Positions 4,302 through 55,132 of a stretch of DNA of 64,000 nt are shown here, piece by piece (position 1 is the stretch's first letter; each line of letters opens with the position of its first letter). Position numbers and translations under genes: made by a program. Under the pieces are notes generated by a model. It was not told the DNA's origin and did no database searches. It was given only the letters and a program-made list of their open reading frames with translations. The DNA comes from a virus (lineage: Duplodnaviria; Heunggongvirae; Uroviricota; Caudoviricetes), in IMG/VR virus record IMGVR_UViG_3300036766_002280, positions 54,803 to 118,802 of that record; one strand, given 5' to 3'.

Positions 4302-4714
4302 AGAAAAAGACTTTATCTTTGCTGACAGATATTGGATCTGCTCTGAAGTTTTATTTCTATAACTGGACTTTTCTTATTAATGGTTCTTGTATAGCTTTCG
4401 TCTGGTATGAAAATTATAAAGGGTTTGATTACAATGCCGAAAGAAATTCTATTGCTTTAGTGATATCTTTTTTTATTATGGCAATGCACTTCAACGGTCA
4501 ATTAATGGATCTAACTCGATCAAAAACTGCTGATTTTAGAAAGTGGTTAGATAAATATAAAGAACTTTGTGCAGAACAATCAGAGATAATTACTAGAATA
4601 CATAATGAAAATCAAATTTTGCTAGAGATGTTAGAGAAGTTTAAACAGGCAAATAGTAAACTTTACGCAGAAAATGAAAGTCTTCATCAACGTTTAGAAA
4701 AAGGGTACGAGTAG
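4298..4714 (+). CDS. membrane protein with C-terminal coiled coil
   Basis: Hydrophobic stretch IAFVWY...LVISFFIMAMHF, then a heptad-like region. Confidence 0.5.
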   Translation: MKKKTLSLLTDIGSALKFYFYNWTFLINGSCIAFVWYENYKGFDYNAERNSIALVISFFIMAMHFNGQLMDLTRSKTADFRKWLDKYKELCAEQSEIITRIHNENQILLEMLEKFKQANSKLYAENESLHQRLEKGYE

Positions 4715-4753
4715 GGTTTAGTAGCCGACGGGCTACTAAAAGGATAGTGTCTA

Positions 4754-4978
4754 ATGAAAAATAGAGACGACAGAGAAAAAATTCATATGAGTACTGGGAC
4801 TGAAAAAGATCAGTTGGCTAAGGATTTAACAGAATTCATGGAAGGGTTTTTCCTTTCTAGATTTATTCGTGGAATAGGGCATAATGAAGGTTACCACGGC
4901 ATGGTTCTGAGTATGCCAGTAGAAGTTTTTTCCGATGAAGTTTTGAAATTTTTAGAGACGAAAAAGAAGTTGGTTTGA
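4754..4978 (+). CDS. hypothetical protein
   Basis: 74-aa ORF with RBS aaaagga. Confidence 0.4.
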   Translation: MKNRDDREKIHMSTGTEKDQLAKDLTEFMEGFFLSRFIRGIGHNEGYHGMVLSMPVEVFSDEVLKFLETKKKLV

Positions 4979-5886: not shown

Positions 5887-7149
5887 ATGCCCATACAACA
5901 AGTATCTTTCGATGCTAGATCAAAGGTTCCAGTCAAGATCTGGACTAATGATATAGATGTCAAAACAAAAACTCAGTTAGATAATCTTGCAACAATGCCT
6001 TTTATTTTCCCTCATATTGCGGTTATGGCTGATTGCCATCTTGGAAAAGGAGCTACCATTGGATCAGTTATTCCTTGTCGTGGAGCTGTAATTCCTGCAT
6101 CAGTTGGAGTTGATCTTGGATGTGGAATGTCCGCAGCAAAATTGAATTTAAAGGTGGAAGAGCTTCCTGATACTCTTCATCCTGTTCGATTAGAAATTGA
6201 ACGATTAGTTCCTCATGGAAGAAGCGATGGTGGAGGACGAGGAGACTACGGAGCTTGGGGAGACCTTCCTGCTGATGTTGCTCAAGCCTGGTTTCATGAA
6301 CATTGGGGAGGTTCGACTTTACAAGCAAGATTAGATGCCATAGGAGTAGTTCATCCAGGTATTGTAAAAAAGCCTGTTAACGCGGAAAGGCATCTTGGAA
6401 CTCTTGGAACAGGAAATCATTTTGTAGAAGTGTGCTTTGATGAAAACAATGATATATGGGTTATGTTACATTCTGGTAGCCGTGGCATTGGCAACCGTAT
6501 TGGAACATATTTTATCGAATTAGCAAAGAAAGATATGAAGAAGTGGTTTATCAACTTACCGGATGAAGATCTTGCTTATCTGCCTGAAGGGTCTGATAAT
6601 TTCAATGATTATGTTCAAGCTGTGTCATGGGCTCAGGACTTTGCGAAGGCAAACAGAGAAATCATGCTGAAAAGAACTTTACGGGCGTTGTCAACTACTA
6701 TTCCTGTTTACAGAGACGGGCATAAAGATCTTCTGGTTCAGGATTCGATCATAGATTGTCATCATAACTATTTGATTCAAGAACATCACTTCGATCAAAA
6801 TGTCTGGGTTACCCGCAAGGGGGCAATTCGAGCACGGGTGGGAGATCTTGGGATTATACCCGGAAGTATGGGCACGGGTAGTTTTATTGTGGAAGGTAAG
6901 GGAAATCTTCAATCGTTTCACTCATGCTCCCACGGGGCAGGCAGAAGAATGAGTCGTGGAGAAGCTGCGCGTACCTTTACTGTTGAAGATCTTATAAAGC
7001 AAACGGATGGAATTGAATGCAAAAAGGATTTAAGCATTATCGACGAAATACCGGGAGCTTACAAAGATATTTATACAGTAATGGAAAATCAAAGTGATTT
7101 GGTTTCAATTAAGCATAAACTTCTGCAGATTATAAACGTAAAAGGGTAA
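5887..7149 (+). CDS. rtcB: RtcB-family RNA 3'-phosphate ligase
   Basis: Motifs GTLGTGNHFVEV, HSGSRGIGN, CHHNY and HSCSHGAGR. Length 420 aa is typical. RBS gaggag. Confidence 0.85.
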   Translation: MPIQQVSFDARSKVPVKIWTNDIDVKTKTQLDNLATMPFIFPHIAVMADCHLGKGATIGSVIPCRGAVIPASVGVDLGCGMSAAKLNLKVEELPDTLHPVRLEIERLVPHGRSDGGGRGDYGAWGDLPADVAQAWFHEHWGGSTLQARLDAIGVVHPGIVKKPVNAERHLGTLGTGNHFVEVCFDENNDIWVMLHSGSRGIGNRIGTYFIELAKKDMKKWFINLPDEDLAYLPEGSDNFNDYVQAVSWAQDFAKANREIMLKRTLRALSTTIPVYRDGHKDLLVQDSIIDCHHNYLIQEHHFDQNVWVTRKGAIRARVGDLGIIPGSMGTGSFIVEGKGNLQSFHSCSHGAGRRMSRGEAARTFTVEDLIKQTDGIECKKDLSIIDEIPGAYKDIYTVMENQSDLVSIKHKLLQIINVKG

Positions 7150-7211: not shown

Positions 7212-7808
7212 ATGGTAAAATGGATTGCACTTGGAATTCTGGGAATTTTTGTATTAGTTGGAATGGGTACTTGTAGTTTTGGGGTGGAGACCTATAATTC
7301 TCTGGTGGCTGAAAGAGAAATGGTTAAACAAAAACTATCTCAGGTTCAGAATGTTTATCAACGACGTAATGATTTACTTCCAAATCTTGTTGAGATTGTT
7401 TCAGGTTATGCAAAGCACGAGCATAATACTTTGACAGATGTTATTACGGCAAGAAGTAAAGCAAGTGCTATTACAATTGATCCTTCAAAAGTTACTCCAA
7501 AACAGTTAGCGGCATTTCAAAGTTCTCAGGGTGAAATCAGTCAAGCTCTTGGTCGTTTAATGGTGGTATCAGAGCAGTACCCTAACTTGAAAGCTGATAC
7601 TCAGTTTATCAACTTACAATCCCAGGTAGAAGGAACGGAAAATCGTATTGCTGTGGAAAGAAGAGAATTTAACTTAGCTGCACAAAGGTTTGATACTCAT
7701 ATCGCTATATTTCCAACAATGATAATTGCTAGAGCTTTTGCTTTTGTTGAATACCCATATTTTCAAGCAGAAGTCGGCGTAGAAAAAGCACCCAAAATTA
7801 AGTTCTAA
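7212..7808 (+). CDS. lemA: LemA family membrane protein
   Basis: N-terminal TM helix. YNSLVAERE...YQRRNDLLPNLVEIVSGYAKHEHNTLTDV is the LemA signature. Confidence 0.8.
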   Translation: MVKWIALGILGIFVLVGMGTCSFGVETYNSLVAEREMVKQKLSQVQNVYQRRNDLLPNLVEIVSGYAKHEHNTLTDVITARSKASAITIDPSKVTPKQLAAFQSSQGEISQALGRLMVVSEQYPNLKADTQFINLQSQVEGTENRIAVERREFNLAAQRFDTHIAIFPTMIIARAFAFVEYPYFQAEVGVEKAPKIKF

Positions 7809-8371: not shown

Positions 8372-8507
8372 TGTTACTCTTACAATGAAGGTCCTGGCTG
8401 AGACAGAAAAAGAAGCTGAAAAAGAATTGAATCGCATGATTAACGATATGGACTACTTTGTTACCCTCGTTAAGGATTCAGTTTCCTTACATTTGTCACA
8501 GGAATAG
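8358..8507 (+). CDS. hypothetical small protein (49 aa)
   Basis: RBS aaggagaaaaaagtaaATG. Below the ORF track cutoff. Confidence 0.35.
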   Translation: MQTFDVTLTMKVLAETEKEAEKELNRMINDMDYFVTLVKDSVSLHLSQE

Positions 8508-8508
8508 A

Positions 8509-9225
8509 ATGAGACTTCGTTTACTTTCGATTTTGATTTGGCTAATAAGTTTTTCTACGTTCTCTTCAGCAGGAGAGTATGACCATCCAGAAGGTAGAGT
8601 AAATGATTTTGCTCATATTTTAAGCATCAGAACGAAGAATATACTGGAAGCAAGATTACGTGACTTTGATAAAAAAACAAGTGTAGAAATTATTATTGTT
8701 ACTCTTCCAAAGTTAGATGGCAGGCCAATCGAAGATGTTACTATCGAAATTGCAAAGAAGTGGAAGATTGGTAAAAAGGATAAAAATAATGGAGTTCTTT
8801 TCACAATTGCTCCACATGATCATAAAGCAAGATTGGAAGTTGGCTACGGTCTAGAACCTATTATAACTGATGCCACTGCGAAAGGTATTTTACACAATGA
8901 TGTATTACCTTATTTTAAGAAAAGTGATTGGGATGGAGGAATAACTGCCGGGATCGATAAAGTTATGGAGCTTGTATCGAAGGATAAAACTTTAGCAGGA
9001 GTGATCTTTACCGATACTCTTGAAAAAGATTTATCGCTTTCAGGCTGGGAAGTGTTCTGGATTGCTTTAGGGGTAGCAATTCTTCTTCTGATAATGCTTG
9101 CTATTTTTGGAGTGGATGGCCTAGCTTTCATTGGCATCATATTGAATGCTATTTTGTCTGGTCGAAAAGATAAAGGATATTCAGGAAAAGGTGGTGGATT
9201 TGGAGGTGGAGGTTCTAGTGATTAA
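8509..9225 (+). CDS. TPM-domain (TLP18.3/Psb32-like) protein with C-terminal TM and Gly-rich tail
   Basis: Signal-like N-terminus MRLRLLSILIWLISFSTFSSA when started at the ATG at 8509. TPM-like core, TM helix and GGGFGGGG tail. Sits directly after LemA, a common pairing. Confidence 0.6.
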   Translation: MRLRLLSILIWLISFSTFSSAGEYDHPEGRVNDFAHILSIRTKNILEARLRDFDKKTSVEIIIVTLPKLDGRPIEDVTIEIAKKWKIGKKDKNNGVLFTIAPHDHKARLEVGYGLEPIITDATAKGILHNDVLPYFKKSDWDGGITAGIDKVMELVSKDKTLAGVIFTDTLEKDLSLSGWEVFWIALGVAILLLIMLAIFGVDGLAFIGIILNAILSGRKDKGYSGKGGGFGGGGSSD

Positions 9226-10581: not shown

Positions 10582-11547
10582 ATGACAAATTTCAAAGAAA
10601 AAACTTATGATGTTGGCGTAATTATCGGAAGATTTCAGGTACCTGAGCTTCACGATGCACATAAGTATTTGATTGATCGTGTGATTGCAAAACACAAACG
10701 AGTTATTATTCTAATTGGAGTAACATCAACTCTCGGCACAAAAAGTAATCCACTTGATTTTCCTTCAAGAGTTGGGCTGTTTAAAGAGTATTTAACGAAA
10801 TTTGAAACAAGAATAATTCTTCATCCACTAACTGATGTGCCGGGAAATGATGAGGTCTGGAGTAAACAACTAGATCGTATCGTCAGAAGCGTTATTCCTC
10901 TTGGCACAGTTTCGCTCTACGGCGGAAGAGATTCTTTTATTAGGCATTACTCAGGTGGATTTGATACCTACGAGTTAGGATTTGAAAGCGATTCAGAGGG
11001 AAAGAAAATGAGAAAAGAATGTAGTCAAGTTCTTATTGATAGTAGAGATTTTAGAGCAGGTCAAATCTATCAGTCTCAAAATCAATTTCCAAAAGTATTT
11101 CCTACAGTTGATATCGCAGTGGTTCGACAGGGAGACATTGGCTTAGAGGTCTTAATGGGACTAAAGCCAAATCATAATGGCTTTAGTTTTCCCGGTGGGT
11201 TTGCGGACCCTACAGATGAGAACTACCAAGAAACAGCTAGAAGAGAATTATCGGAAGAAGTGGATGTGGAAATTGATTTATTTCTTCGATGTGTCGGGAG
11301 CTATCGAATAGCTGATCCACGTTACACTGGAGAAGAAAGAATTATAACAACTTTGTTTCTAGCTGATTATGTTTTTGGATCTGGGGCACCAAAATCTGAG
11401 TTCATAGAAACAGAATGGTTTAAGTTAGATCCTTCAAATTTAGGATTTGTGGCGGACAACCACAAACAATTATTTTTGGATATAGTTCAGTTTTGTAGAG
11501 ATTTTAATATCAAAAGGAAGACAAAAAGTAAGGAAGGAAGAGTTTGA
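10582..11547 (+). CDS. bifunctional NMN adenylyltransferase / Nudix hydrolase (NadM/NatV-like)
   Basis: N-terminal nucleotidyltransferase GRFQVPELHDAH (GRFQPxHxGH-like). C-terminal Nudix box GGFADPTDENYQETARRELSEEVDV. Confidence 0.75.
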   Translation: MTNFKEKTYDVGVIIGRFQVPELHDAHKYLIDRVIAKHKRVIILIGVTSTLGTKSNPLDFPSRVGLFKEYLTKFETRIILHPLTDVPGNDEVWSKQLDRIVRSVIPLGTVSLYGGRDSFIRHYSGGFDTYELGFESDSEGKKMRKECSQVLIDSRDFRAGQIYQSQNQFPKVFPTVDIAVVRQGDIGLEVLMGLKPNHNGFSFPGGFADPTDENYQETARRELSEEVDVEIDLFLRCVGSYRIADPRYTGEERIITTLFLADYVFGSGAPKSEFIETEWFKLDPSNLGFVADNHKQLFLDIVQFCRDFNIKRKTKSKEGRV

Positions 11548-12941
11548 AACTTAATACCAAAGCAAAATCAGACGTACTCACCCACGGTGGAGGAAATGCA
11601 AAATGGGTATCACCAGAACTGATGTTAAAGCGATCTGTTTGTGCCTGCCTTTTATGGGAAAATGAATTTTACGAAGATGGAGAAACCATTACTAAAAGAA
11701 TCAAATCCTTAGTTCCACAGTGTGATCCTCAGTTTGTTTCTGAGCTTGCAATTGAGGCAAGAACAGTAATGAATCTCCGTCATGTTCCTTTACTGCTTGC
11801 AGTGGAAATGACCAAGTATGCTATACACAAGAAGTATGTAGCCATGACCTTGGAAAAGATTATTCAACGTCCTGATGAAATTACTGAGTATCTGGCAATT
11901 TACTTCGGAGGAAGCGATAGAAGGGTTCTGAAAAGTAAACTTTCTAAACAAAGTAAAAAAGGTTTACGAGCGGCATTCTACAAGTTCAATGAATACTCCT
12001 TAGCGAAGTACAACCAAGATGGAGGAATCAAGTTACGAGATGCACTGTTTCTTGTTCATGCCAATCCAAAAACTGAGGCTCAGGCAGATCTGTTCAAAAG
12101 ATTAGCTGACAAGGAATTAAAAACTCCTGATACTTGGGAAGTGGCACTTAGTGCTGGTGCAAATAAGAAAGAAACTTTTCTTCGTTTGATACAAGAAAAG
12201 AAACTTGGGGCACTTGCGTTTCTTAAGAATCTTCGTGGCATGCATGAATCTGGAGTTTCCGAATCAGTTGTAGCCGAATACATAGCGAATGTGGATCTGT
12301 CCAAAGTATTACCATTTAGGTTTATTTCAGCGGCAAGGATGGTTCCTCAGTGGGAATCCGTAATAGACATCGGATTCTTAAGACGTACCACCCAGATGCC
12401 GAAATTGAAAGGAAAAACGGTAGTAATTATCGATGTCTCTGGAAGTATGTATGGTTCTAGGGTGAGTGCAAAATCTGATATGACCAGAGCCTTAGCGGCT
12501 TGTGCTTTAGCGGCTATTTGCAGAGAACTTTGTGAAACCTCTTCTATCTATGCAACAGCAGGTAATGATGGAATGAGAATTCATAAGACTGTTTTAGTTC
12601 CAAGCCGTCATGGAATGGCTTTAGTGGATGCAATTCATTCCCTGTCTCATCCTCTTGGTGGAGGTGGTATCTTTCTTAAACAGGTTATGGACTATGTTCG
12701 TACTCAAGAAAAGACAGCAGATAGAACAATCATTATCACGGATGAGCAGGATTGTTCTCAAGGGGAAGAAGATAGTCCTTCTCGGGCGCTGCCTCTTGGC
12801 ACTGGATATCTGATTAACGTTGCTTCTAATCAATTCGGAATTGGGTATGATAGGTGGACTCACTTTGATGGTTTTTCTGAATCAATCATGACCTATCTTA
12901 TCGAAGCTGAAAAATGGAAATTAGCTTACAATAGAAAATAG
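11544..12941 (+). CDS. rsr: Ro60-like (TROVE) protein with C-terminal vWA/MIDAS domain
   Basis: C-terminal vWA with MIDAS DVSGSM, then ...TDEQD. Length 465 aa and N-terminal region are compatible with TROVE. A structured ncRNA candidate follows immediately. Confidence 0.5.
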   Translation: MKLNTKAKSDVLTHGGGNAKWVSPELMLKRSVCACLLWENEFYEDGETITKRIKSLVPQCDPQFVSELAIEARTVMNLRHVPLLLAVEMTKYAIHKKYVAMTLEKIIQRPDEITEYLAIYFGGSDRRVLKSKLSKQSKKGLRAAFYKFNEYSLAKYNQDGGIKLRDALFLVHANPKTEAQADLFKRLADKELKTPDTWEVALSAGANKKETFLRLIQEKKLGALAFLKNLRGMHESGVSESVVAEYIANVDLSKVLPFRFISAARMVPQWESVIDIGFLRRTTQMPKLKGKTVVIIDVSGSMYGSRVSAKSDMTRALAACALAAICRELCETSSIYATAGNDGMRIHKTVLVPSRHGMALVDAIHSLSHPLGGGGIFLKQVMDYVRTQEKTADRTIIITDEQDCSQGEEDSPSRALPLGTGYLINVASNQFGIGYDRWTHFDGFSESIMTYLIEAEKWKLAYNRK

Positions 12942-12944
12942 CTC

Positions 12945-13440
12945 GAGCAGCGTAGATATGGGTTACTTCGATAAAGTTGGTTCAAATCCAATCGACCCTA
13001 GTGCGAAGGCAATAGGATTTGGTAAACCTGTAACGAATGTTCTCTCTAGCAATAAATTGATTCTTGAGCGGTGTAGAATTCAGGTACTTCCCGTTAATGA
13101 GCTTTTCCTGAAGTCGATTGTTCCCTCAAGACAAGAACTTTCAAATATAGCGGGCGGTGTAGACAAGGGTTACTTCATACGAGAACTGCCGTCTCGTAAG
13201 AGACTCAGAGGTTCGATTCCTCTCCGAGCCGAAAGGCCAGGTGGCGAAGTGGTTAACGCAGCAGATAGAATCCCTTATCGATTGTTCCCCCGCTAGGCAA
13301 GGCAAGGCAGGACAGACAATCAGTGGATAAGTATCCAGGTTGTTCCGAGCCTTTAGGTGCTGGCGCAGTGTAGAATTCAGGTACTTCCCGTTAAGGAGCC
13401 TTTCCTGAAGTCGATTGTTCTCGCCAGCACTTTTTGTTTT
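12945..13440 (+). ncRNA. Y-RNA-like structured ncRNA(s) with tRNA-like modules
   Basis: Non-coding gap after the rsr-like gene. Two near-identical 55-nt hairpin modules (13069-13124 and 13366-13420). T-arm mimic agaggTTCGATTcctct (13207-13223). D-arm-like ggccaggtggcgaAGTGGTTAAcgc (13235-13260). Terminal stem gtgctggcg/cgccagcac plus TTTTTGTTTT. Confidence 0.45.
13357..13440 (+). terminator. rho-independent terminator closing the ncRNA region
   Basis: gtgctggcg ... cgccagcac stem followed by a T-run at 13431-13440. Confidence 0.55.
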
Positions 13441-13474
13441 AAGGAATACTTTCCAGTAGAACTTTTGGAGGAGT

Positions 13475-14077
13475 ATGGAGCAATTTAGTATTTCAGTAAA
13501 AGATTATTTAAAAAAATTAATGGCTGTTGGTAATTTTGTAAGAGCTGAGAAATCAAGTTTTTCAGATTCACTAGATTATTTAAAATCTAAAAATTTCGAT
13601 TTTGTTTTGATAGGTGGTCTGGCAACATCACATTATTCTCCTCCTAGACTTACGGAAGATATTGATATTTTTTTAGAAAATGAACAAAAATTGGAAGAAT
13701 TCAAAAGGCTTTCTTTAGGAGAAGTTAAATGGATTAGAAAACATGCATTTATTTGTTCTGGAATTGAAGTAGAAGTTTTAACTCCTGAATTTTTAAGTAT
13801 TCCTTCTAAAATTTCGGATTATGTTTTTAGTACTAAAGTAGAAAAATCTTCTGGACTTTTTATTCCTTCTCCAGAAGGTGTTCTTCTGCTAAAACTTGAA
13901 GCCTTGAGAGATTTTCCAGACAAGCAAGATATCTACAATATAATTAAAACTCAAGGACAAAGTTTAGATCTTGAAATTGTAAAAAGTTTAACATCAGAAA
14001 AAGGAAGATTATTTTTAGACGAGGTAGTTAAAAATTTAAAGATTTTTCTAGAAGATCGATTAGAAGAAGAAGCTTAA
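13475..14077 (+). CDS. hypothetical protein, possible nucleotidyltransferase fold
   Basis: FVLIGGLATSHY...RLTEDIDIFL resembles minimal-NTase/AbiEii-like motifs. Weak. Confidence 0.3.
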   Translation: MEQFSISVKDYLKKLMAVGNFVRAEKSSFSDSLDYLKSKNFDFVLIGGLATSHYSPPRLTEDIDIFLENEQKLEEFKRLSLGEVKWIRKHAFICSGIEVEVLTPEFLSIPSKISDYVFSTKVEKSSGLFIPSPEGVLLLKLEALRDFPDKQDIYNIIKTQGQSLDLEIVKSLTSEKGRLFLDEVVKNLKIFLEDRLEEEA

Positions 14078-14097
14078 CAAAGGAAAGGAAGAAACGT

Positions 14098-15495
14098 ATG
14101 CGTAAAAATCTTTTGCTTTTGACGGATAGTTACAAGTTTTCTCACTGGAAACAATATCCTCCGGGAACGGAAAAAGTATTTTCTTACTTTGAATCAAGAG
14201 GTGGAGATTTTGAACGAACCATATTCTTTGGGCTGCAATACTTTTTGAAGGAATATCTTGAAGGATGCTCTTTTTCAGAAACAGATATTGCGCAAGCTAG
14301 AGTCTATGTTGAAGCACATATTGGACCTGGCATCTTCAACGAAGAGGGCTGGCAATATATTTTGAGGGAGCACAAGGGTAAGTTACCAGTCAAAATCCAG
14401 GCCGTCCCAGAAGGAATGTCAGTTCCAACGTCAAACGTTTTGATGACGATCGAAAATACGGATCCAAAATGCTTTTGGTTGACCAACTATCTGGAGACTT
14501 TACTTGTTCAAGTTTGGTATCCTACAACTGTGGCTACCCTTTCAAGAGAAATGAAAGAAGTTCTAACGGGGTATCTGGAAGAAACAGGAGATCCTGCTTT
14601 AGTTAATTTTAAACTTCATGATTTTGGATTCAGAGGAGTTAGTTCGGTAGAAAGTGCTGGTATCGGTGGAGCAGCTCATCTTGTAAACTTTATGGGCACG
14701 GATACAGTTCAAGCACTTGTGGTAGCAAATGATTATTACAATGAGCCAATGGCTGGATTTAGTATTCCTGCGGCAGAGCATTCTACGATTACAAGTTGGG
14801 GGCGTCATAATGAGGTCAAGGCCTTCGATAACATGATTACTCAATTTCCAAAAGGATTGGTTGCTGTGGTATCGGACTCTTACGATATCTATCGAGCCTG
14901 CGCTGTTCTTTGGGGAACGGAATTAAGAGACAAGGTTCTTGCCCGGGATGGAGTACTCATCATCAGACCTGATTCTGGGGAAGCAACTGAAGTTATTCCA
15001 CGAGTTTTAAAAACTCTTGGAAGTGCCTTTGGATATGAATTGAACAAGAAAGGTTACAAAGTTCTTAACCCAAAAGTAAGAGTTATTCAAGGAGATGGAG
15101 TTGATTACGATTCCATGCATGAGATTCTGTCCGTAATGAAACGGGATGGATGGAGTGCTGATAATATCGCCTTCGGAATGGGAGGGGCTTTACTGCAGAA
15201 GTTGAACCGGGATACGCAAAAGTTTGCCTTTAAATGCTCGAGCGTCACTATCAATGGGATAGAGCAGGATGTATTTAAAGAACCAGCGGATACTCCTTGG
15301 AAGAAATCAAAAGCAGGTAGACTTAAACTTTGCAAGGGATCGATGGGTGGGAAAATTGTTTGGTATACCACCCAAGAATCTACTCCGTATCATACTCATT
15401 CAAAGGATATGCTAGAAACTGTATTTTTGAATGGAGAAATTGTAAAGACGTATTCATTTGCAGAGGTTCGCGCCAATGCGAAGATAGAGGAATAA
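14098..15495 (+). CDS. nadV: nicotinamide phosphoribosyltransferase (NAMPT/NadV)
   Basis: 465 aa. FGFRGVSS, VVSDSYDIY, IRPDSGEATEV and QGDGVD are typical of the NAMPT/PBEF family. Confidence 0.85.
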   Translation: MRKNLLLLTDSYKFSHWKQYPPGTEKVFSYFESRGGDFERTIFFGLQYFLKEYLEGCSFSETDIAQARVYVEAHIGPGIFNEEGWQYILREHKGKLPVKIQAVPEGMSVPTSNVLMTIENTDPKCFWLTNYLETLLVQVWYPTTVATLSREMKEVLTGYLEETGDPALVNFKLHDFGFRGVSSVESAGIGGAAHLVNFMGTDTVQALVVANDYYNEPMAGFSIPAAEHSTITSWGRHNEVKAFDNMITQFPKGLVAVVSDSYDIYRACAVLWGTELRDKVLARDGVLIIRPDSGEATEVIPRVLKTLGSAFGYELNKKGYKVLNPKVRVIQGDGVDYDSMHEILSVMKRDGWSADNIAFGMGGALLQKLNRDTQKFAFKCSSVTINGIEQDVFKEPADTPWKKSKAGRLKLCKGSMGGKIVWYTTQESTPYHTHSKDMLETVFLNGEIVKTYSFAEVRANAKIEE

Positions 15496-15500
15496 TAGTA

Positions 15501-15641
15501 ATGTATAGAGTTATTTTTTGCGATTACACGATATTGGAAAAACAGTTGAATGAAGCAGAAAAAAAGGGTTACGAAGTAATTCATCTTAGCTATGATTCGA
15601 ACGAATCACAATTCATAATTGTTTGTAAAAATTCTGAATAG
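15501..15641 (+). CDS. hypothetical small protein (46 aa)
   Basis: RBS gaggaataatagtaATG. Confidence 0.25.
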   Translation: MYRVIFCDYTILEKQLNEAEKKGYEVIHLSYDSNESQFIIVCKNSE

Positions 15642-15643
15642 TT

Positions 15644-15731
15644 GGAAGGCTGGCTGAGTCCGGTTTAAAGCGCTAGTTTTGAGAACTAGAGAAGGTAAAA
15701 TCTTCCGTGGGTTCGAATCCCACGCCTTCCT
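15644..15731 (+). tRNA. tRNA-Ser (anticodon TGA), type II with long variable arm
   Basis: Acceptor ggaaggc/gccttcc. Anticodon stem ctagt/actag with loop ttTGAga. Variable arm gaag-gtaaaat-cttc. T-arm gtgggTTCGAATcccac. No encoded CCA. Confidence 0.7.
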
Positions 15732-15743
15732 TGCTTGCTTGAA

Positions 15744-15820
15744 TGGACTGTAGCTCAGCTGGCTAGAGCAGTTTCCCTATAAGAGACAGGTCGTTGGTTC
15801 GAGTCCAACCAGTCCAACCA
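15744..15820 (+). tRNA. tRNA, anticodon TAT (Ile-like), CCA encoded
   Basis: Acceptor tggactg/cagtcca + a + CCA. D-arm gctc-agctggcta-gagc. Anticodon stem gtttc/gagac with loop ccTATaa (unusual C33). T-arm gttggTTCGAGTccaac. Confidence 0.6.
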
Positions 15821-15857
15821 TAAGATTTTTTAGTGATAAAACTTACAAAGGAGAACA

Positions 15858-16370
15858 ATGCTGATACCATTTAGAGATGAAGCAGAAACGAACGCCTGGA
15901 ATGAAATGCACCTTGTTTTTTGGAAGTATGAATTGTCGGCGGTTCAAGTTCTTGGAATAGCCAACTATCTTGAATATACCACAAGGCTGCTGATTTCAAA
16001 AACAGAAAGTGACCATAATAAAGCAGAACGGATTGAGAAGTGGATTGACGGCATAACCATATCTAGAGCATCAAAAGCTCAAAATATCGACCCACCTTCC
16101 AAAGAATGCAGAGCTACCACAAAAGCCATCGCAATAATAATTTTCAGAAAGCACAATCTTATTCCAGATGCTATCGATACTGAAAAAGAAGGTCTTCTCC
16201 TGCGGTATGATAACGCCATCAATCATCGTAATATGTTTATCGAAGTTACAAAAGATCTGACAACCAATGCTGTGGTAGAGGAAAACAGTGTAATTCTTTC
16301 AGCTCCTAAAAATATTCTGCTTACAAACGACGATATCAAACAGATAATTGAAGTCTGGACGGAACCCTAA
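15858..16370 (+). CDS. hypothetical protein
   Basis: RBS aaaggagaacaATG. Confidence 0.5.
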   Translation: MLIPFRDEAETNAWNEMHLVFWKYELSAVQVLGIANYLEYTTRLLISKTESDHNKAERIEKWIDGITISRASKAQNIDPPSKECRATTKAIAIIIFRKHNLIPDAIDTEKEGLLLRYDNAINHRNMFIEVTKDLTTNAVVEENSVILSAPKNILLTNDDIKQIIEVWTEP

Positions 16371-16704: not shown

Positions 16705-17832
16705 ATGTCATCTGTATACCCTCTGTTAAATAATTCTCTACTTATCGAACTTCTGCAGGACAACGCCGAACAAAAAATAAATGAAATTGTGCAAAAATGG
16801 GAAGAACCTCATCGATTCTATCATTCGTTCGATAACCATCTTCGTAAGCTCTTGGACATGATTGATAATATCAAATCAGAGCAGATAGAAGATTTGGAAG
16901 GAGTGATTAACGACGTAGCTTACTATTTGGATATACTGCGAGTAATTGCAGTCTTCCACGATGTGTTTTATGATCCCATGAGTAAGCAGAATGAAGAGTT
17001 ATCAGTTCAATATTTTAAACGAGTTTGTACGAATACAATCCACCCAGCTTATAATATCATTGTAGAAGCTATCGAAGATACAAAATATCATCAACCTCGA
17101 AATCCTTTTTCCAGAGCTTTTTGTGAGTTGGACCTTTTTGATCTTATTCATGGCAGTTTGAAATCTATTTTAGCTAACGAGATCCTTTTATTTAAAGAGT
17201 ACCAATTTTGTGATTACTCGTTGTACAAGGAAGGACGAGTAAAGTTCTTGAGAAAGTTTGTTGACGATCATACCGGTAAGAAATTAGGACGATACCACAT
17301 TATCATGTCTGATTTACAAGCACAAATTTTTGAACAATATATAGAATATATCGAGCATCGGGTTCCTCATATCGGAGTTTACGCAGGGTCATTCAATCCT
17401 TTTCATAAGGGGCATTTAAACATTCTTCAAAAGGCGGAAAAAGTTTTTGATAAAGTAATTATTGCTTTGGGGCTTAATCGTGTTAAAGATATCGTCAAAG
17501 TAGGGGATTCTCAATGGAGGCAGAAAATGATTAAAGATCTTCTTCCCTACCATCAGGTGGAAGAATTTACTGGTTTTCTTGCAGACTATTTACGAAGTAA
17601 ATGCGAGCATTCCCGTATTACACTAATTCGTGGTCTCCGAAATGGTGATGATTTTTCTTATGAACTTCTCCAGCATAGATTCTTGCAGGATCAATTTCCT
17701 AGTATCAGCGTTATCTGGATTCCCTGCGATAGAGAGTACGATTACATTTCGTCTTCAGCTATTAGACAAATTGAATGGATAGATCCTAAAGCAACATTGC
17801 CTTACGTTGTCCAATCAATGAGAAAAGACTAA
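16705..17832 (+). CDS. HD-domain / NadD-like nucleotidyltransferase fusion protein
   Basis: C-terminal GVYAGSFNPFHKGHLNIL matches (H/T)xGH cytidylyltransferase-like NadD/NMNAT. N-terminal half has an HD-like AVFHDVFYDP motif. Confidence 0.55.
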   Translation: MSSVYPLLNNSLLIELLQDNAEQKINEIVQKWEEPHRFYHSFDNHLRKLLDMIDNIKSEQIEDLEGVINDVAYYLDILRVIAVFHDVFYDPMSKQNEELSVQYFKRVCTNTIHPAYNIIVEAIEDTKYHQPRNPFSRAFCELDLFDLIHGSLKSILANEILLFKEYQFCDYSLYKEGRVKFLRKFVDDHTGKKLGRYHIIMSDLQAQIFEQYIEYIEHRVPHIGVYAGSFNPFHKGHLNILQKAEKVFDKVIIALGLNRVKDIVKVGDSQWRQKMIKDLLPYHQVEEFTGFLADYLRSKCEHSRITLIRGLRNGDDFSYELLQHRFLQDQFPSISVIWIPCDREYDYISSSAIRQIEWIDPKATLPYVVQSMRKD

Positions 17833-52501: not shown

Positions 52502-55132
52502 TTGGCTTTCTTTTTTGCTTCAAGAGCAACAAAACAGGTGGAAGTCAATACTCCCTTACAGAATTTTTCCTATCAGCTTCAGTGTAAGGTTTGTCCTTTA
52601 GATAAAGCTCATCAATCTAAAATGATGGCATCAGGAAGTTTGGATCCTGATGTGTATTTTCTTGGTATCTCTCCCTCACAAATAGATTACGAAAAAGGAT
52701 CTCCGTTTATGGACGAAGAGGGATTCTTTATTCGGAATATGATTAAAAAATTCTTCGAATCTATTTACTACCCAGAAGAATGGACTTCTTTTAGCCAGCA
52801 GGATATGAAAATAACTGGCAAGCCTTTTGCATCTAAAGTAAGATTTAACAATTGTCTTAGATGCGATAAGGATGGTAATCCTACCGAACATGAGATCAAT
52901 TGCTGCAAAAAGTTTTTAGAGGATGATGTTGAAAAAACGAAGCCTAAAATTATTATTGGCTTTGGAGAAATACCGCTTAAGACTGTTGTAAAAGTAAATG
53001 GAATAGGGGACTGGAGAGGAAGAAAGGTTCCAGTTAAAATTGGAAGTCATACTTGTTGGTATTTTCCAATTCAAGATGTAGCTCCTATACTAGATCGTAA
53101 AAAGAAATCAAAGTTTCCTAGTTTCAAAGACGATTGGGAAAAGTTACTTGAATTCGATTTTAAGCGCATAGCAGAGTTCCTACGTTATCTACCAGCTTTT
53201 CCTCCAGTCTTAGAAGACCCTTCAGCATTTGAAAAGAATATCACTATCAATTTTGGCAAGACTAAAGCAGATCTTGACCAAGTTAGATTAAAACTGGAGC
53301 ATTTCAAAAAGTTTCCTGACTTGGCTTTAGACATTGAAACGAATAGTAAGTTACGTCCTTATTGTGCTGATGGAAGAATTATAACAATGGCCATTGGAAC
53401 GTATGATGAAGTCTATGCCTTTCCGATAGAGCATCCTGATTGTTGGAATGGGGACTACACAGAAATTTTAGCTTTAGTTAAAGACTTTTTATTGAATTCT
53501 GGTGTTAAGATCTGTCACAACGTTAAGTTTGAATTGGAATGGTTGCTTTGGAAGTTTGGTAAGGATGTGCTATTCAAAACTAAATGGGGCTGTACCATGG
53601 CTCAAGCCTTTCATATCGATGAAAGAGTATCGAAAACAAGTGAAAGCATGTTAAGTCTGAATAGGCTTTGTCTATTGTATTTCGGATTCAAATTGAAGGA
53701 TCAAAGTACTGTAGATACAAAGAACATTCTTAGAAGTACTTTACAAGATATTTTGATTTATAATGGAATGGATGTCAAATATACTTATGGTATTTATAAA
53801 ATTCAGGGAGACACAATAGATAAGTCCTTGTATCCAATTTATGATCATAGTATTGATACGTCAAGAACTTTGGCTATCACTCAAAATAGTGGCATTCCTG
53901 TAAACCATGAGAAGGTAGCTTCGATATCTTTCAAGCTAAAAACTGAGATTGATAAGATATCCAATGAAATAAGTCTTTTACCGGAAGTAAAGCAATTTGA
54001 AAAAAATAGGGGAGCTTTCAATTTCGATAGCTCTGAGCATTTAGTAACTGTGTTTAGGGATATTTTGAAGTTAGAATCTGTGAAGTCTACAAAGAAGAAA
54101 GTAGATGGTTTCAGCACTGACAAAGAGGTTCTGGATATTTTTGCTGCTCAAGGAATTAAAATTGCCAAACTAGTTAAAGATTATAGGGAGCTAAACAAAC
54201 TAAAGTCTACTTATGTAGATTCCCTTCCTGCTTTGTCATCGTTTGATAAGAAACTGCATTCTAATTTCCATAATCTTTTTGTTAGCACAGGAAGGCTTTC
54301 AAGTGCCGATCCAAACATGCAGAATTTTCCAAAAAGAAAGAATTCGTATGTTAGAGAAGTTATCTATGCTCCTTCAGGGTATGTACTCTTATCTGCTGAC
54401 TATGGGCAGATAGAAGCCAGATGTATTGCTATGGCTAGTAGGGACAAAGTCTTTACGAAAATGATCTGGGATAATTACGATGTTCATATGGACTGGGCAT
54501 TGAAAGCAGTAAAAAGAAATCCTAGTTATGGAAAAGCATCAAGTGTATCTGAGTTTGAGAACGATAAGAAGCTGGCAAAGAGTTACAGAAGCTTGATCAA
54601 AAATAAACTGGTATTTCCCTGGTTCTATGGGGCTTCAAAGTATTCTGTTGCTAGGGATCTTGGCTTCTCTGACGAGGATAGAGATTATCTGTTTGATTTG
54701 TATTGGCAAATCTTCGAAGGAGTAAAAAAATGGCAGGAGAATCTTGTTTCTTTTTATGATCGTTATGGTTATGTTACTACTTTAACTGGTAGGAGAAGAC
54801 ACGCTCCTTTAACCAAGAATGAGCTTCTGAACGCTCCTATTCAGGGTACTTCAAGTGATATAGTGGTTAACGCCATGAACAGGTTGGGAAGGATTGCCTA
54901 TGAGACAGATCAACCTCATCTTCATCCAGTACTGAATATCCATGATGACTTGACCTTTTTGATACCAGTTAAAAGTTTAGAACAGGACATTGATATTATT
55001 GCTAGAGAAATGTGTACAGTTCCTTATGATTTTGTAAATGTTCCGATATCAATTGAAATGAGCGTTGGAAAAGATTGGTTTAAAATGGAAGAGTTAGAAA
55101 CGTTTGATTCTAGACAGTTTGAAAAATCATAG
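52502..55132 (+). CDS. family A DNA polymerase with 3'-5' exonuclease and N-terminal UDG-family-4-like domain
   Basis: Exo I LALDIETNS. Motif A LSADYGQIEARCIA. Motif C NIHDDLTFL. N-terminus VYFLGISPSQIDYEKGSPFMDEEGFFIRNMI resembles UDG family 4 (GEAPG..GxPFxGxxGxxL) with a degenerate active site. TTG start after aaggtgg. Confidence 0.85.
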   Translation: MAFFFASRATKQVEVNTPLQNFSYQLQCKVCPLDKAHQSKMMASGSLDPDVYFLGISPSQIDYEKGSPFMDEEGFFIRNMIKKFFESIYYPEEWTSFSQQDMKITGKPFASKVRFNNCLRCDKDGNPTEHEINCCKKFLEDDVEKTKPKIIIGFGEIPLKTVVKVNGIGDWRGRKVPVKIGSHTCWYFPIQDVAPILDRKKKSKFPSFKDDWEKLLEFDFKRIAEFLRYLPAFPPVLEDPSAFEKNITINFGKTKADLDQVRLKLEHFKKFPDLALDIETNSKLRPYCADGRIITMAIGTYDEVYAFPIEHPDCWNGDYTEILALVKDFLLNSGVKICHNVKFELEWLLWKFGKDVLFKTKWGCTMAQAFHIDERVSKTSESMLSLNRLCLLYFGFKLKDQSTVDTKNILRSTLQDILIYNGMDVKYTYGIYKIQGDTIDKSLYPIYDHSIDTSRTLAITQNSGIPVNHEKVASISFKLKTEIDKISNEISLLPEVKQFEKNRGAFNFDSSEHLVTVFRDILKLESVKSTKKKVDGFSTDKEVLDIFAAQGIKIAKLVKDYRELNKLKSTYVDSLPALSSFDKKLHSNFHNLFVSTGRLSSADPNMQNFPKRKNSYVREVIYAPSGYVLLSADYGQIEARCIAMASRDKVFTKMIWDNYDVHMDWALKAVKRNPSYGKASSVSEFENDKKLAKSYRSLIKNKLVFPWFYGASKYSVARDLGFSDEDRDYLFDLYWQIFEGVKKWQENLVSFYDRYGYVTTLTGRRRHAPLTKNELLNAPIQGTSSDIVVNAMNRLGRIAYETDQPHLHPVLNIHDDLTFLIPVKSLEQDIDIIAREMCTVPYDFVNVPISIEMSVGKDWFKMEELETFDSRQFEKS

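Follow-up and report, generated by a model that had tools for sequence, protein, structure and literature searches.

What does a phage encode in the apparently untranslated DNA directly behind its Ro60/Rsr gene (rsr)? The question was raised by a 64,000-nt stretch of the Caudoviricetes virus record IMGVR_UViG_3300036766_002280 (IMG/VR; record positions 54,803 to 118,802), which is called the window here and numbered from its first letter. A first-pass annotation, made from the letters alone, had described 12945-13440 as one structured non-coding region with a duplicated hairpin, tRNA-like arms and a terminator, and had named YrlA as the RNA to compare it with. We found that 12941-13430 (+ strand) very probably holds four Y RNAs in a row, which would serve as partners of the Ro60/Rsr protein whose gene directly precedes them. 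Ro60/Rsr works with adjacent Y RNAs, which in bacteria and phages comprise YrlA, with its tRNA-like domain, and short YrlB-type RNAs (PMC4201824 and PMC12135203, of which parts are used here). Judged by sequence, the array would contain both YrlA-type and YrlB-type RNAs of a divergent subfamily lying below the Rfam YrlA threshold, with transcription and Rsr binding predicted. There was good support for the array being real and of a known kind, namely phage-encoded Y RNAs next to Ro60. The earlier interpretation was incomplete rather than wrong. All the elements it listed are present in the sequence of 12700-13700, and its structured non-coding RNA was upheld by covariation in relatives, but the single region with two modules resolves into four separate Y RNA genes; two further units, a second T arm (12976-12992) and the Ro60/Rsr gene ending at 12941 lay beyond it.

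Folds, covariation and conserved boxes of the four modules

The four units, modules A to D, share one fold: an outer stem, a bulged nucleotide, a G-G/C-C pair, an asymmetric internal loop, a 9-bp inner stem and a UUACUUC box. The internal loop is conserved, with GGYGUA on the 5' side (YGUA within the loop) and GAUUGUU on the 3' side. In DNA letters (repeat families D2-D6), the elements common to all four were the 5' box YGTAGA, followed after 3-4 nt by GGTTACTTC, and the 3' box CGAWTGTTCY, each unit having its own outer stem. The pattern GNAGAN5GKTACTTC occurred 4 times in 64 kb versus 0.02 expected, every time inside the array, and GGTTCRANTCC occurred 4 times versus 0.14 expected, twice in the array and twice in true tRNAs. 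Counts so far above expectation show that the listed elements did not arise as chance matches. Modules B and D, 70 nt each, have no T arm; their internal-loop boxes are those of A and C, and their terminal loop of about 22 nt, UACUUCCCGUUAAUGAGCUUUU, is pyrimidine-rich at both ends and larger than the small loop of YrlB. They correspond to the duplicate hairpins noticed before, which are indeed present (13063-13130 and 13360-13427, 88% identity over 68 nt), but whose cores from 13069 and 13366 differ at about 4 positions and not at 2-3. The terminal stem of the first-pass annotation, GTGCTGGCG (13357-13365) paired with CGCCAGCAC (13422-13430) and followed by the T-run TTTTTGTTTT, also exists, as the outer stem of module D itself.

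Compensatory base changes in relatives, which had been proposed as a check of the structure, were abundant. An alignment of 22 short modules from 18 sources (A1) gave an outer stem of 8 bp and, beyond a bulge, a step of 2 bp and an internal loop, an inner stem of 9 bp; one side of the loop spans 5 alignment columns, occupied by 4 nt in the majority of sequences, and the other 7 nt. In this alignment 92.1% of cells paired, versus 40-50% when the 3' strand was slid by 1-3 columns. Changes on both sides were seen at 19 of the 19 pairs, and the observed values were reached by none of 500 shuffles. An enlarged set of 51 modules gave the same result (91.8% of cells paired). The pair between GG of the 5' box and CC of the 3' box covaried as well, being AG/CU in modules A and D and GC/GC in locus L023. 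An alternative pairing of the 5' box (GUAG/GAAG) with UUACUUC was rejected, in that UUACUUC is invariant while the 5' box varies, leaving no covariation; the two also lie on the same strand across a 9-bp helix.

The same signature was found between the two short modules of the window. In the alignments of covariance model R1 (built from A1), 10 of 70 positions distinguish B from D, and 8 of these form four compensated pairs of the outer helix (U-A to G-C twice, A-U to C-G, and G-C to A-U); the other 52 nt differ at 2 positions only. Because the tandem outer stems diverged and each kept its own pairing, the pattern fits independently folding units cut from one transcript. It suggests either selection for distinct tandem outer stems or gene conversion of the cores. 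The minimum free energy (MFE) fold of module B gave the same stems as the model, and module D had an MFE of -30.9 kcal/mol (z -4.1).

Modules A and C were outside the seed of R1, and B was a seed member. On both strands of the 64-kb window R1 gave exactly four matches, all in the array and on the + strand, scoring 69 bits for B, 65.7 for D, 52.5 for C and 32.9 for A (E 1e-6). A second covariance model, R2, was built from 20 long modules of other loci (alignment A3), window sequences being excluded. It matched module C over model positions 1-137 of 137 with 82.3 bits (E 3e-22) and module A with 42.4 bits (E 2e-10), which bears out the earlier choice of YrlA for comparison. The other R2 matches in the window were two weak partial ones on true tRNA genes, one on the T arm of tRNA-Ile and one across the junction of two tRNAs, reaching from the T arm of the first into the D arm of the second, where RF02553 gave a false match as well; matches spanning adjacent tRNAs are a known type of false positive in YrlA searches (Chen et al. 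2014, PMC4201824).

Standard scans did not recover the array. Rfam gave no match in the array region at gathering threshold or at E<=10, RF00019 (metazoan Y RNA) was absent among Rfam matches up to E 10, and the gathering threshold of RF02553 (YrlA), 69 bits, was not reached by the window modules. Sub-threshold but significant RF02553 matches (30-54 bits, E 1e-9 to 1e-2) fell on long modules of eight related loci, of Caulobacter phage CcrColossus and of Xanthomonas phage Olaya, so that the family counts as a divergent branch of YrlA; the window copies are too divergent for detection by RF02553. The Rfam alignment of locus L019, which sets its stem 1 on the family's inner stem and deletes its stem 2, was discarded as a sub-threshold local optimum that makes no statement of homology. 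ARAGORN and the Rfam tRNA model called no tRNA in 12941-13440, in agreement with the first-pass view of a tRNA mimic rather than a tRNA. The region departs from a cloverleaf in that a tetraloop caps the acceptor-like stem and the Y stem occupies the anticodon position.

The tRNA-like domain belongs to two of the four modules, A and C. It is circularly permuted, in the order V arm, T arm, closed acceptor-like hairpin of 7-8 bp, and D arm. The T stem-loop AGAGG-TTCGATT-CCTCT (13207-13223) and the D-arm-like GCGAAGTGGTTAACGC (13244-13259) that had been noticed earlier were both recovered as parts of module C. Its acceptor-like hairpin has 5 of 7 positions paired, and the 3' strand, GGCCAGG, stands just before the D arm. 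Module A has no V arm. RNAalifold on A3 gave a 5-bp T arm that runs straight into a 7-bp hairpin, with a D arm behind it, and compensatory changes in each of the three; this order of V, T, AS and D is the published YrlA layout. Across the family, a T arm was nearly always missing from modules of 65-95 nt (2 exceptions) and was present in the class of 108-167 nt (1 exception). In CcrColossus (JX100810; locus L026, 1623-1789) an annotated tRNA-Gln (locus positions 1628-1695) lies inside one of 8 R1 modules, which are found at about 108.5-109.7 kb of the record; it may be either a genuine tRNA lodged within the module or the tRNA-like domain of a Y RNA taken for a tRNA.

The conserved single-stranded boxes were compared with published YrlA features. 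Over 51 modules the 5' strand reads U-G-G-Y-G-(U 59%, A 29%, C 12%)-A-G. The published YrlA 5' motif, the presumed Rsr contact, is GNCGAAN0-1G (PMC4201824), and modules A to D have AGCGUAGA, GGUGUAGA, GGUGUAGA and AGUGUAGA at this position. Loci L012 and L013, in the same covariance family, have GGCGAAG, an exact match, so the 5' motif is a continuum of which the window holds a variant with one or two substitutions. UACUUC after the inner stem is conserved to at least 96% in the 51 modules. The V loop of YrlA begins with YUAY (PMC4201824), and UUAC directly follows the inner stem at 12963-12966 in A and 13170-13173 in C. On the 3' strand the modules read C-G-N-Y-U-R-U-U-C-C; no YrlA counterpart is described in the portion of PMC4201824 used here. 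The boxes GGYGNAG, UUACUUC and UUGUUCC are candidate contacts with Ro60 or with effectors. In metazoan Y RNAs, too, UUG stands in the 3' strand of the Ro-binding helix, and GGGUUAU comes right behind the upper stem, which we take as a lead only.

Two further candidates were tried as array elements. A fifth module in 13296-13358, drawn by eye as AAGGC-A-GG-ACAGA ... GGUUGUU-CC-GA-GCCUU, scored 2.6 bits (E 4.4) in R1 with filters off; the spacer between C and D could be a decayed module, a reading that R1 does not support. An inverted repeat at 12723-12758, in the 3' end of rsr, includes GATTGTTCTC, the very sequence that module D has as its 3' box. This copy, at 12750, has no 5' partner and no R1 match, and is probably there by chance.

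Linkage to rsr, distribution and genomic setting

The protein encoded upstream matched Pfam TROVE at E 1e-17, with a weaker match to the Ro60 vWA domain, and phrog_850 ('RNA-binding protein') at E 8e-37. Its closest solved structures were those of Thermus phage phiLo Ro60 (9KOP/9L5Y, E 5.5e-19, residues 12-452). Homologues are annotated as TROVE proteins in 86 phage records at 39-44% identity, including Xanthomonas phages, Caulobacter phage CcrColossus and crAss-like phages. The stop codon of rsr (TAG, 12939-12941) abuts module A on the same strand.

Megablast and sensitive blastn of the array region against 50,697 phage records gave no match; DNA similarity being absent, relatives were reached through the Rsr protein. 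This search yielded 25 viral loci at 41-57% identity, and Rfam YrlA at gathering threshold was found in none of the 25. In nearly all 25 loci the TTACTTC box clustered no more than about 500 nt from rsr and on its strand; most clusters preceded the gene, but the two closest relatives resembled the window in having them downstream. R1 gave 51 matches in the window and 21 Rsr-encoding viral loci; all lay on the rsr strand, and all but one were within about 500 nt of rsr.

The linkage was then approached from the RNA side, with the 22-nt box TGGYGNAGAN4RGTTACTTC and no protein criterion. The box was present in at least 120 viral stretches. Among the matches listed, 59 of 80 viral box loci contain a gene for an Rsr homologue, the median distance being 286 nt (maximum 1249), with the box on the rsr strand in 58 of the 59; the RNAs were upstream of rsr in 45 and downstream in 14. 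R1 found 181 modules in these 80 loci, as tandem copies numbering from 1 to 9 per locus. Eight modules precede the TROVE gene of CcrColossus and five that of Xanthomonas phage Olaya, and two follow the TROVE gene of crAss-like phage cr112_1. In cr112_1 (L028, 4417-4831) the modules come after the TROVE gene and an HNH endonuclease gene, and behind them stands a 142-nt Rfam tRNA match (4690-4831, 50 bits) that is unannotated in the record and may be a tRNA with an insertion. In L030 the modules (123-405) lie on the opposite strand to rsr (610-1278) in divergent arrangement, the sole such viral locus among the matches listed.

In bacterial genomes the same box was found in at least 120 stretches, many single matches being estimated to be chance. 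At E<1e-6, R1 confirmed 123 modules in the bacterial box loci among the matches listed. The loci concerned were mostly of Acidobacteriota, with others in, for example, Caulobacter, Asticcacaulis and planctomycetes, and Rsr was encoded in 49 of the 120 bacterial box loci listed. Long arrays of 5 to 8 modules occurred in bacterial loci L189 (234-3508), L157, L164, L165, L205 and L213, mostly Acidobacteriota (Terriglobia). The R1 modules in bacterial genomes, which come from several phyla, mean that the family is not restricted to phages; it is abundant in cells too. RtcB was present in 8 box-bearing bacterial loci among the matches listed, and in the related loci L046 and L053 it lay directly beside rsr, which brings to mind the Salmonella rsr-yrlBA-rtcBA operon. 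Together, these results indicated close linkage of the family to rsr among phages as well as bacteria; in all, the covariance models placed its modules beside rsr in more than 100 viral contigs.

The coordinates of the modules and of neighbouring genes are collected in Table 1. All genes of the window lie on one strand, its GC content is 37%, and it encodes DnaB, a DNA polymerase, UvsX and a Dda-like helicase, so that it looks like part of a large phage genome of lytic type. RtcB, LemA and the TPM-domain protein, together with Rsr and the Y RNAs, look like an RNA repair or quality-control block. Neither RtcA nor RtcR was among the Pfam and PHROG calls on 26 ORFs of the window, in which no search was aimed at either. 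The NUDIX, NAMPT and NMNAT-like genes that flank the array may be a phage NAD+ salvage set; such sets have been reported to counter NAD-depleting defences. The nucleotidyltransferase-like gene starts 35 nt past the U-run of module D. It was rejected as a conserved partner of the array, since tblastn found no homologue in 268 fetched loci.

Table 1. Modules of the array and genes around it (positions in the window; blank cells, nothing reported)
Feature	Position	Strand	Sequence	Basis or remark
Module A, YrlA-type Y RNA with reduced tRNA-like domain (predicted)	12941-13050	+		R1 and R2 matches
A, outer stem			GCUCGAG/CUCUAGC	
A, 5' box	12949-12956	+	AG-CGUA-GA	
A, UUACUUC box	12963-12969	+	UUACUUC	
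A, T arm	12976-12992	+	GUUGG-UUCAAAU-CCAAU	pattern search; aligns to R2 T arm
A, acceptor-like hairpin		+	CCUAGUGC-GAAG-GCAAUAGG	by inspection
A, 3' box	13034-13043	+	CGAAUGUUCU	
Module B, short YrlB-type Y RNA hairpin (predicted)	13062-13131	+		R1; MFE fold; repeat family D1
B, outer stem			CUUGAG/CUCAAG	bulged C; GG/CC pair
B, internal loop			UGUA versus GAUUGUU	
B, inner stem			GA-UUCAGG/CCUGAA-UC	loop starts UACUUC
Module C, full YrlA-type Y RNA (predicted)	13148-13295	+		R2 and R1 matches
C, 5' box		+	GG-UGUA-GA	
C, UUACUUC box	13170-13176	+	UUACUUC	
C, V arm	13178-13198	+		
C, T arm	13207-13223	+	AGAGG-UUCGAUU-CCUCU	aligns to R2 T arm
C, acceptor-like hairpin	13224-13241	+	CCGAGCC-GAAA-GGCCAGG	aligned to R2 AS helix
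C, D arm, after UG	13244-13259	+	GCG-AAGUGGUUAA-CGC	aligned to R2 D arm
C, 3' box			UCGAUUGUUCC	
C-D spacer	13296-13358	+	UGGAU-AAGU-AUCCA; GGUUGUUCC	small hairpin and 3'-box-like element, by eye
Module D, short Y RNA hairpin, paralogue of B (predicted)	13357-13440	+		R1 match 13359-13428
D, extended outer stem	13357-13430		GUGCUGGCG/CGCCAGCAC	followed by UUUUUGUUUU
ORF, 112 aa, ATG start	12958-13296	+		called mechanically; almost certainly spurious
rsr, Ro60/Rsr orthologue (TROVE and vWA domains), 465 aa	11544-12941	+		Pfam, PHROG, structure search
RtcB RNA ligase	5887-7149	+		phrog_1075 'tRNA splicing ligase', E 4e-136
LemA	7212-7808	rsr strand		
TPM-domain protein	8458-9225	rsr strand		
NUDIX protein	10582-11547			Pfam
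200-aa protein	13475-14077			weak nucleotidyltransferase matches (DUF2204, DUF6036, AbiEii; E ~2e-4 to 8e-4)
Nicotinamide phosphoribosyltransferase (NAMPT)	14098-15495			E 5e-58
tRNA-Ser(UGA) and tRNA-Ile(UAU), adjacent true tRNAs	15644-15820			ARAGORN, Rfam
Cytidylyltransferase-like (NMNAT-like) protein	16705-17832			Pfam

Proposed mechanism and alternative explanations

Published Ro60/Y RNA systems suggest how the array might work. No sigma-70-like site was found on the + strand of 12134-13559, which is weak evidence; since no promoter-like site stands between rsr and the array, we infer that the four RNAs would be co-transcribed with rsr. Transcription would end at the stem and U-run of module D, which probably also serve as the intrinsic terminator of the rsr-Y RNA transcript; a simple terminator scan did not list this site because it demands a loop of 3-8 nt. 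The transcript would then be cut into single RNAs, and Rsr would bind the conserved internal loop through the 5' GGYGUAG, a variant of GNCGAAN0-1G, and the 3' UUGUUCC. The tRNA-like domain of A and C might recruit a host tRNA- or RNA-binding effector, the likeliest being the exoribonuclease PNPase, for which the RYPER complexes of Deinococcus and Salmonella and the phiLo phage complex provide a precedent (PMC4201824, PMC12135203). The phage could in this way redirect RNA decay or repair during infection, alongside its own RtcB ligase, and the module may cooperate with RtcB-type RNA repair (PMC7824862). As for the short RNAs B and D, they would probably sit on Rsr or gate it, or else link it to further partners.

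Several points weigh against a Y RNA array serving the upstream Rsr. Transcription, processing and Rsr binding were carried over from the published systems, everything here being read from sequence, and the effector, whether PNPase or another, and the role in infection were assumed by analogy. The MFE z-scores of A, B and C alone were unremarkable (-1.0 to -1.75). The literal GNCGAAN0-1G occurs in none of the 4 window modules and in 4 of 51 family members. Within the tRNA-like domains, the D arm of A is poor and left mostly unaligned by R2, and the acceptor-like stem of C has two mismatches; Yrn1 of D. radiodurans likewise has no full D arm (PMC4201824). RF02553 returned, at E<=10 in 12500-16200, only a spurious match across two true tRNAs. 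Lastly, a few viral loci have good modules with no rsr in the fetched DNA, and Rsr may therefore not be the sole partner of the modules. These loci are L029 (3993-4061), L035 (1727-3138), L044 (4984-5228), L045 (2470-2535) and L070 (10735-10820). Their R1 scores reach 69.5 bits, L035 has five modules, and a DnaJ-domain protein and a terminase large subunit are among the products encoded nearby. Such modules may be 'orphan' Y RNAs using a distant or host-encoded Rsr.

The rsr-less loci also speak for the alternative that survived best, in which the modules are elements independent of Rsr: terminator or attenuator hairpins, a small mobile repeat, or tRNA-like decoys for defence nucleases or tRNA-modifying enzymes. 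Also in its favour, module D is followed by a U-run, the tandem copies vary in number, and known YrlA RNAs are substrates of tRNA enzymes (PMC4201824). However, the U-run is found at D only, the modules are essentially confined to the rsr side and strand within loci, and the most conserved single-stranded boxes match the published Ro60-binding motif and the YUAY of YrlA. As to decoys, the tRNA-like domain has no anticodon loop. The anticodon loop is the usual target of anticodon nucleases. We regard this explanation as improbable; the tRNA-like domain might act as a decoy in addition to its other function.

Still less probable is a tRNA graveyard, that is, functionless pseudogenes and fragments left by rearrangement of a phage tRNA cluster. 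The two T arms and the D-like arm do resemble pieces of tRNAs, real tRNA genes stand 2.2 kb downstream, and relatives have tRNA genes near rsr. Yet the order of T then D with a closed hairpin between them was conserved and covarying in 20 unrelated loci, and the tRNA-like part always sits inside the same non-tRNA scaffold of stem and internal loop. Modules B and D have no tRNA pieces and are nevertheless the best-conserved members of the family. Compensatory change in related loci contradicts random decay, and linkage to rsr at the observed distance and on the same strand would be unexpected for decaying tRNAs.

Least credible is a real small gene at the 112-aa ORF, the repeats being those of a repetitive protein: although the ORF begins with ATG and shares the strand of all neighbouring genes, it has no Pfam family and no tblastn match at E<=1 in 50,697 phage records, it spans three independently folding modules (A, B and C) whose homologues, 65 to 167 nt long, differ in length without keeping to multiples of 3, the substitutions in stems compensate one another with no regard to codon position, and no such ORF is conserved in most relatives, where the array is upstream of rsr. 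The ORF is thus almost certainly spurious, as the first-pass annotation had supposed. A stretch to which automatic tools give a hypothetical 112-aa protein would be four RNA genes, and a Y RNA array that acts with Rsr remains the explanation we favour.

Comparison with known Ro60/Y RNA systems

The closest known RNAs are those of the YrlA family (Chen et al. 2014, RNA 20:1715, PMC4201824, RF02553). A place within 4 kb of rsr and on its strand is a published YrlA feature (PMC4201824), and the window array lies within this distance. YrlA is further marked by Rsr binding in vivo, by an accumulation that depends on Rsr (bacterial Y RNAs are lost on deletion of rsr) and by modifications of the tRNA type. 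Like YrlA, it stands beside rsr on the same strand with more than one Y RNA per locus, and has a long stem with a conserved 5' motif at the presumed Rsr site and UUAC opening the V region. The V arm, T arm, closed acceptor-like hairpin and D arm of YrlA are all present in C, and in A without the V arm and with a weak D arm. Both families have phage members, including CcrColossus, for which Y RNA-like RNAs are credited to Chen et al. 2014 in a later paper (PMC12135203). The array differs from YrlA in its 5' motif, G(G/A)YGUAGA instead of GNCGAAN0-1G, in the extension of the box to a nearly invariant UUACUUC, in a conserved 3' strand, CGNUUGUUCC, and in having one inner stem where the Rfam consensus has two.

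Modules B and D resemble YrlB/Yrn2 of Salmonella, M. smegmatis and D. radiodurans (PMC4201824), in that they are short hairpins beside a YrlA-type RNA and rsr that carry the presumed Rsr-binding box and no full tRNA-like domain. Published YrlB has no detectable homologues beyond its own genus, according to the portion of PMC4201824 used here, whereas the short modules of this family span many phages and bacteria. The loop of YrlB is small and pyrimidine-rich (PMC4201824); that of B and D is the longer one described above, starting with UACUUC.

We tentatively put forward, as a possibility on the doubtful side, that the modules form a distinct and previously unmodelled Y RNA subfamily, marked by GGYGNAGA, UUACUUC and CGNUUGUUCC, which would include a conserved YrlB-like class and occur beside rsr, as tandem arrays of 2 to 9 genes, in many phages and in bacteria of several phyla. 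If so, a single Ro60 ring would obtain from the arrays a set of interchangeable adaptors, each suited to a different host effector in the course of infection, and the invariant UUACUUC would be a new protein- or RNA-contact element. The curated Rfam YrlA model misses this branch of Y RNAs, of which two simple covariance models recovered hundreds of copies, among them short Y RNAs of a kind previously taken as genus-specific; with an improved model, the known number of Y RNAs would rise considerably. The current understanding of Ro60/Y RNA systems is not overturned by these results.

Among phage systems, the window is most like Thermus phage phiLo, with its phiRo60 and Yrl1/Yrl2 (NAR 2025, PMC12135203). 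In both, a phage Ro60 gene is accompanied by two or more adjacent Y RNA-like genes, and phiRo60 is the closest solved structure to the window Rsr. The phiLo system binds host PNPase in a RYPER-like complex (PMC12135203), and the mechanism proposed above for the window is the same. The phiLo RNAs lie upstream and had been identified through a CGAA motif; the window array lies downstream, has four members with GUAG instead of CGAA, and contains clear tRNA-like domains. The arrangement of Rsr, Y RNAs and RtcB on one strand is shared with the Salmonella rsr-yrlBA-rtcBA operon (PMC7790460, PMC9879122), although in the window RtcB is 4.4 kb upstream of rsr, the unrelated genes for LemA, TPM and NUDIX proteins lie between, and the setting is a large phage genome. 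As in that operon, Rsr, RtcB and the RNA genes occur together, and their combination marks the phage as carrying an RNA quality-control or repair module.

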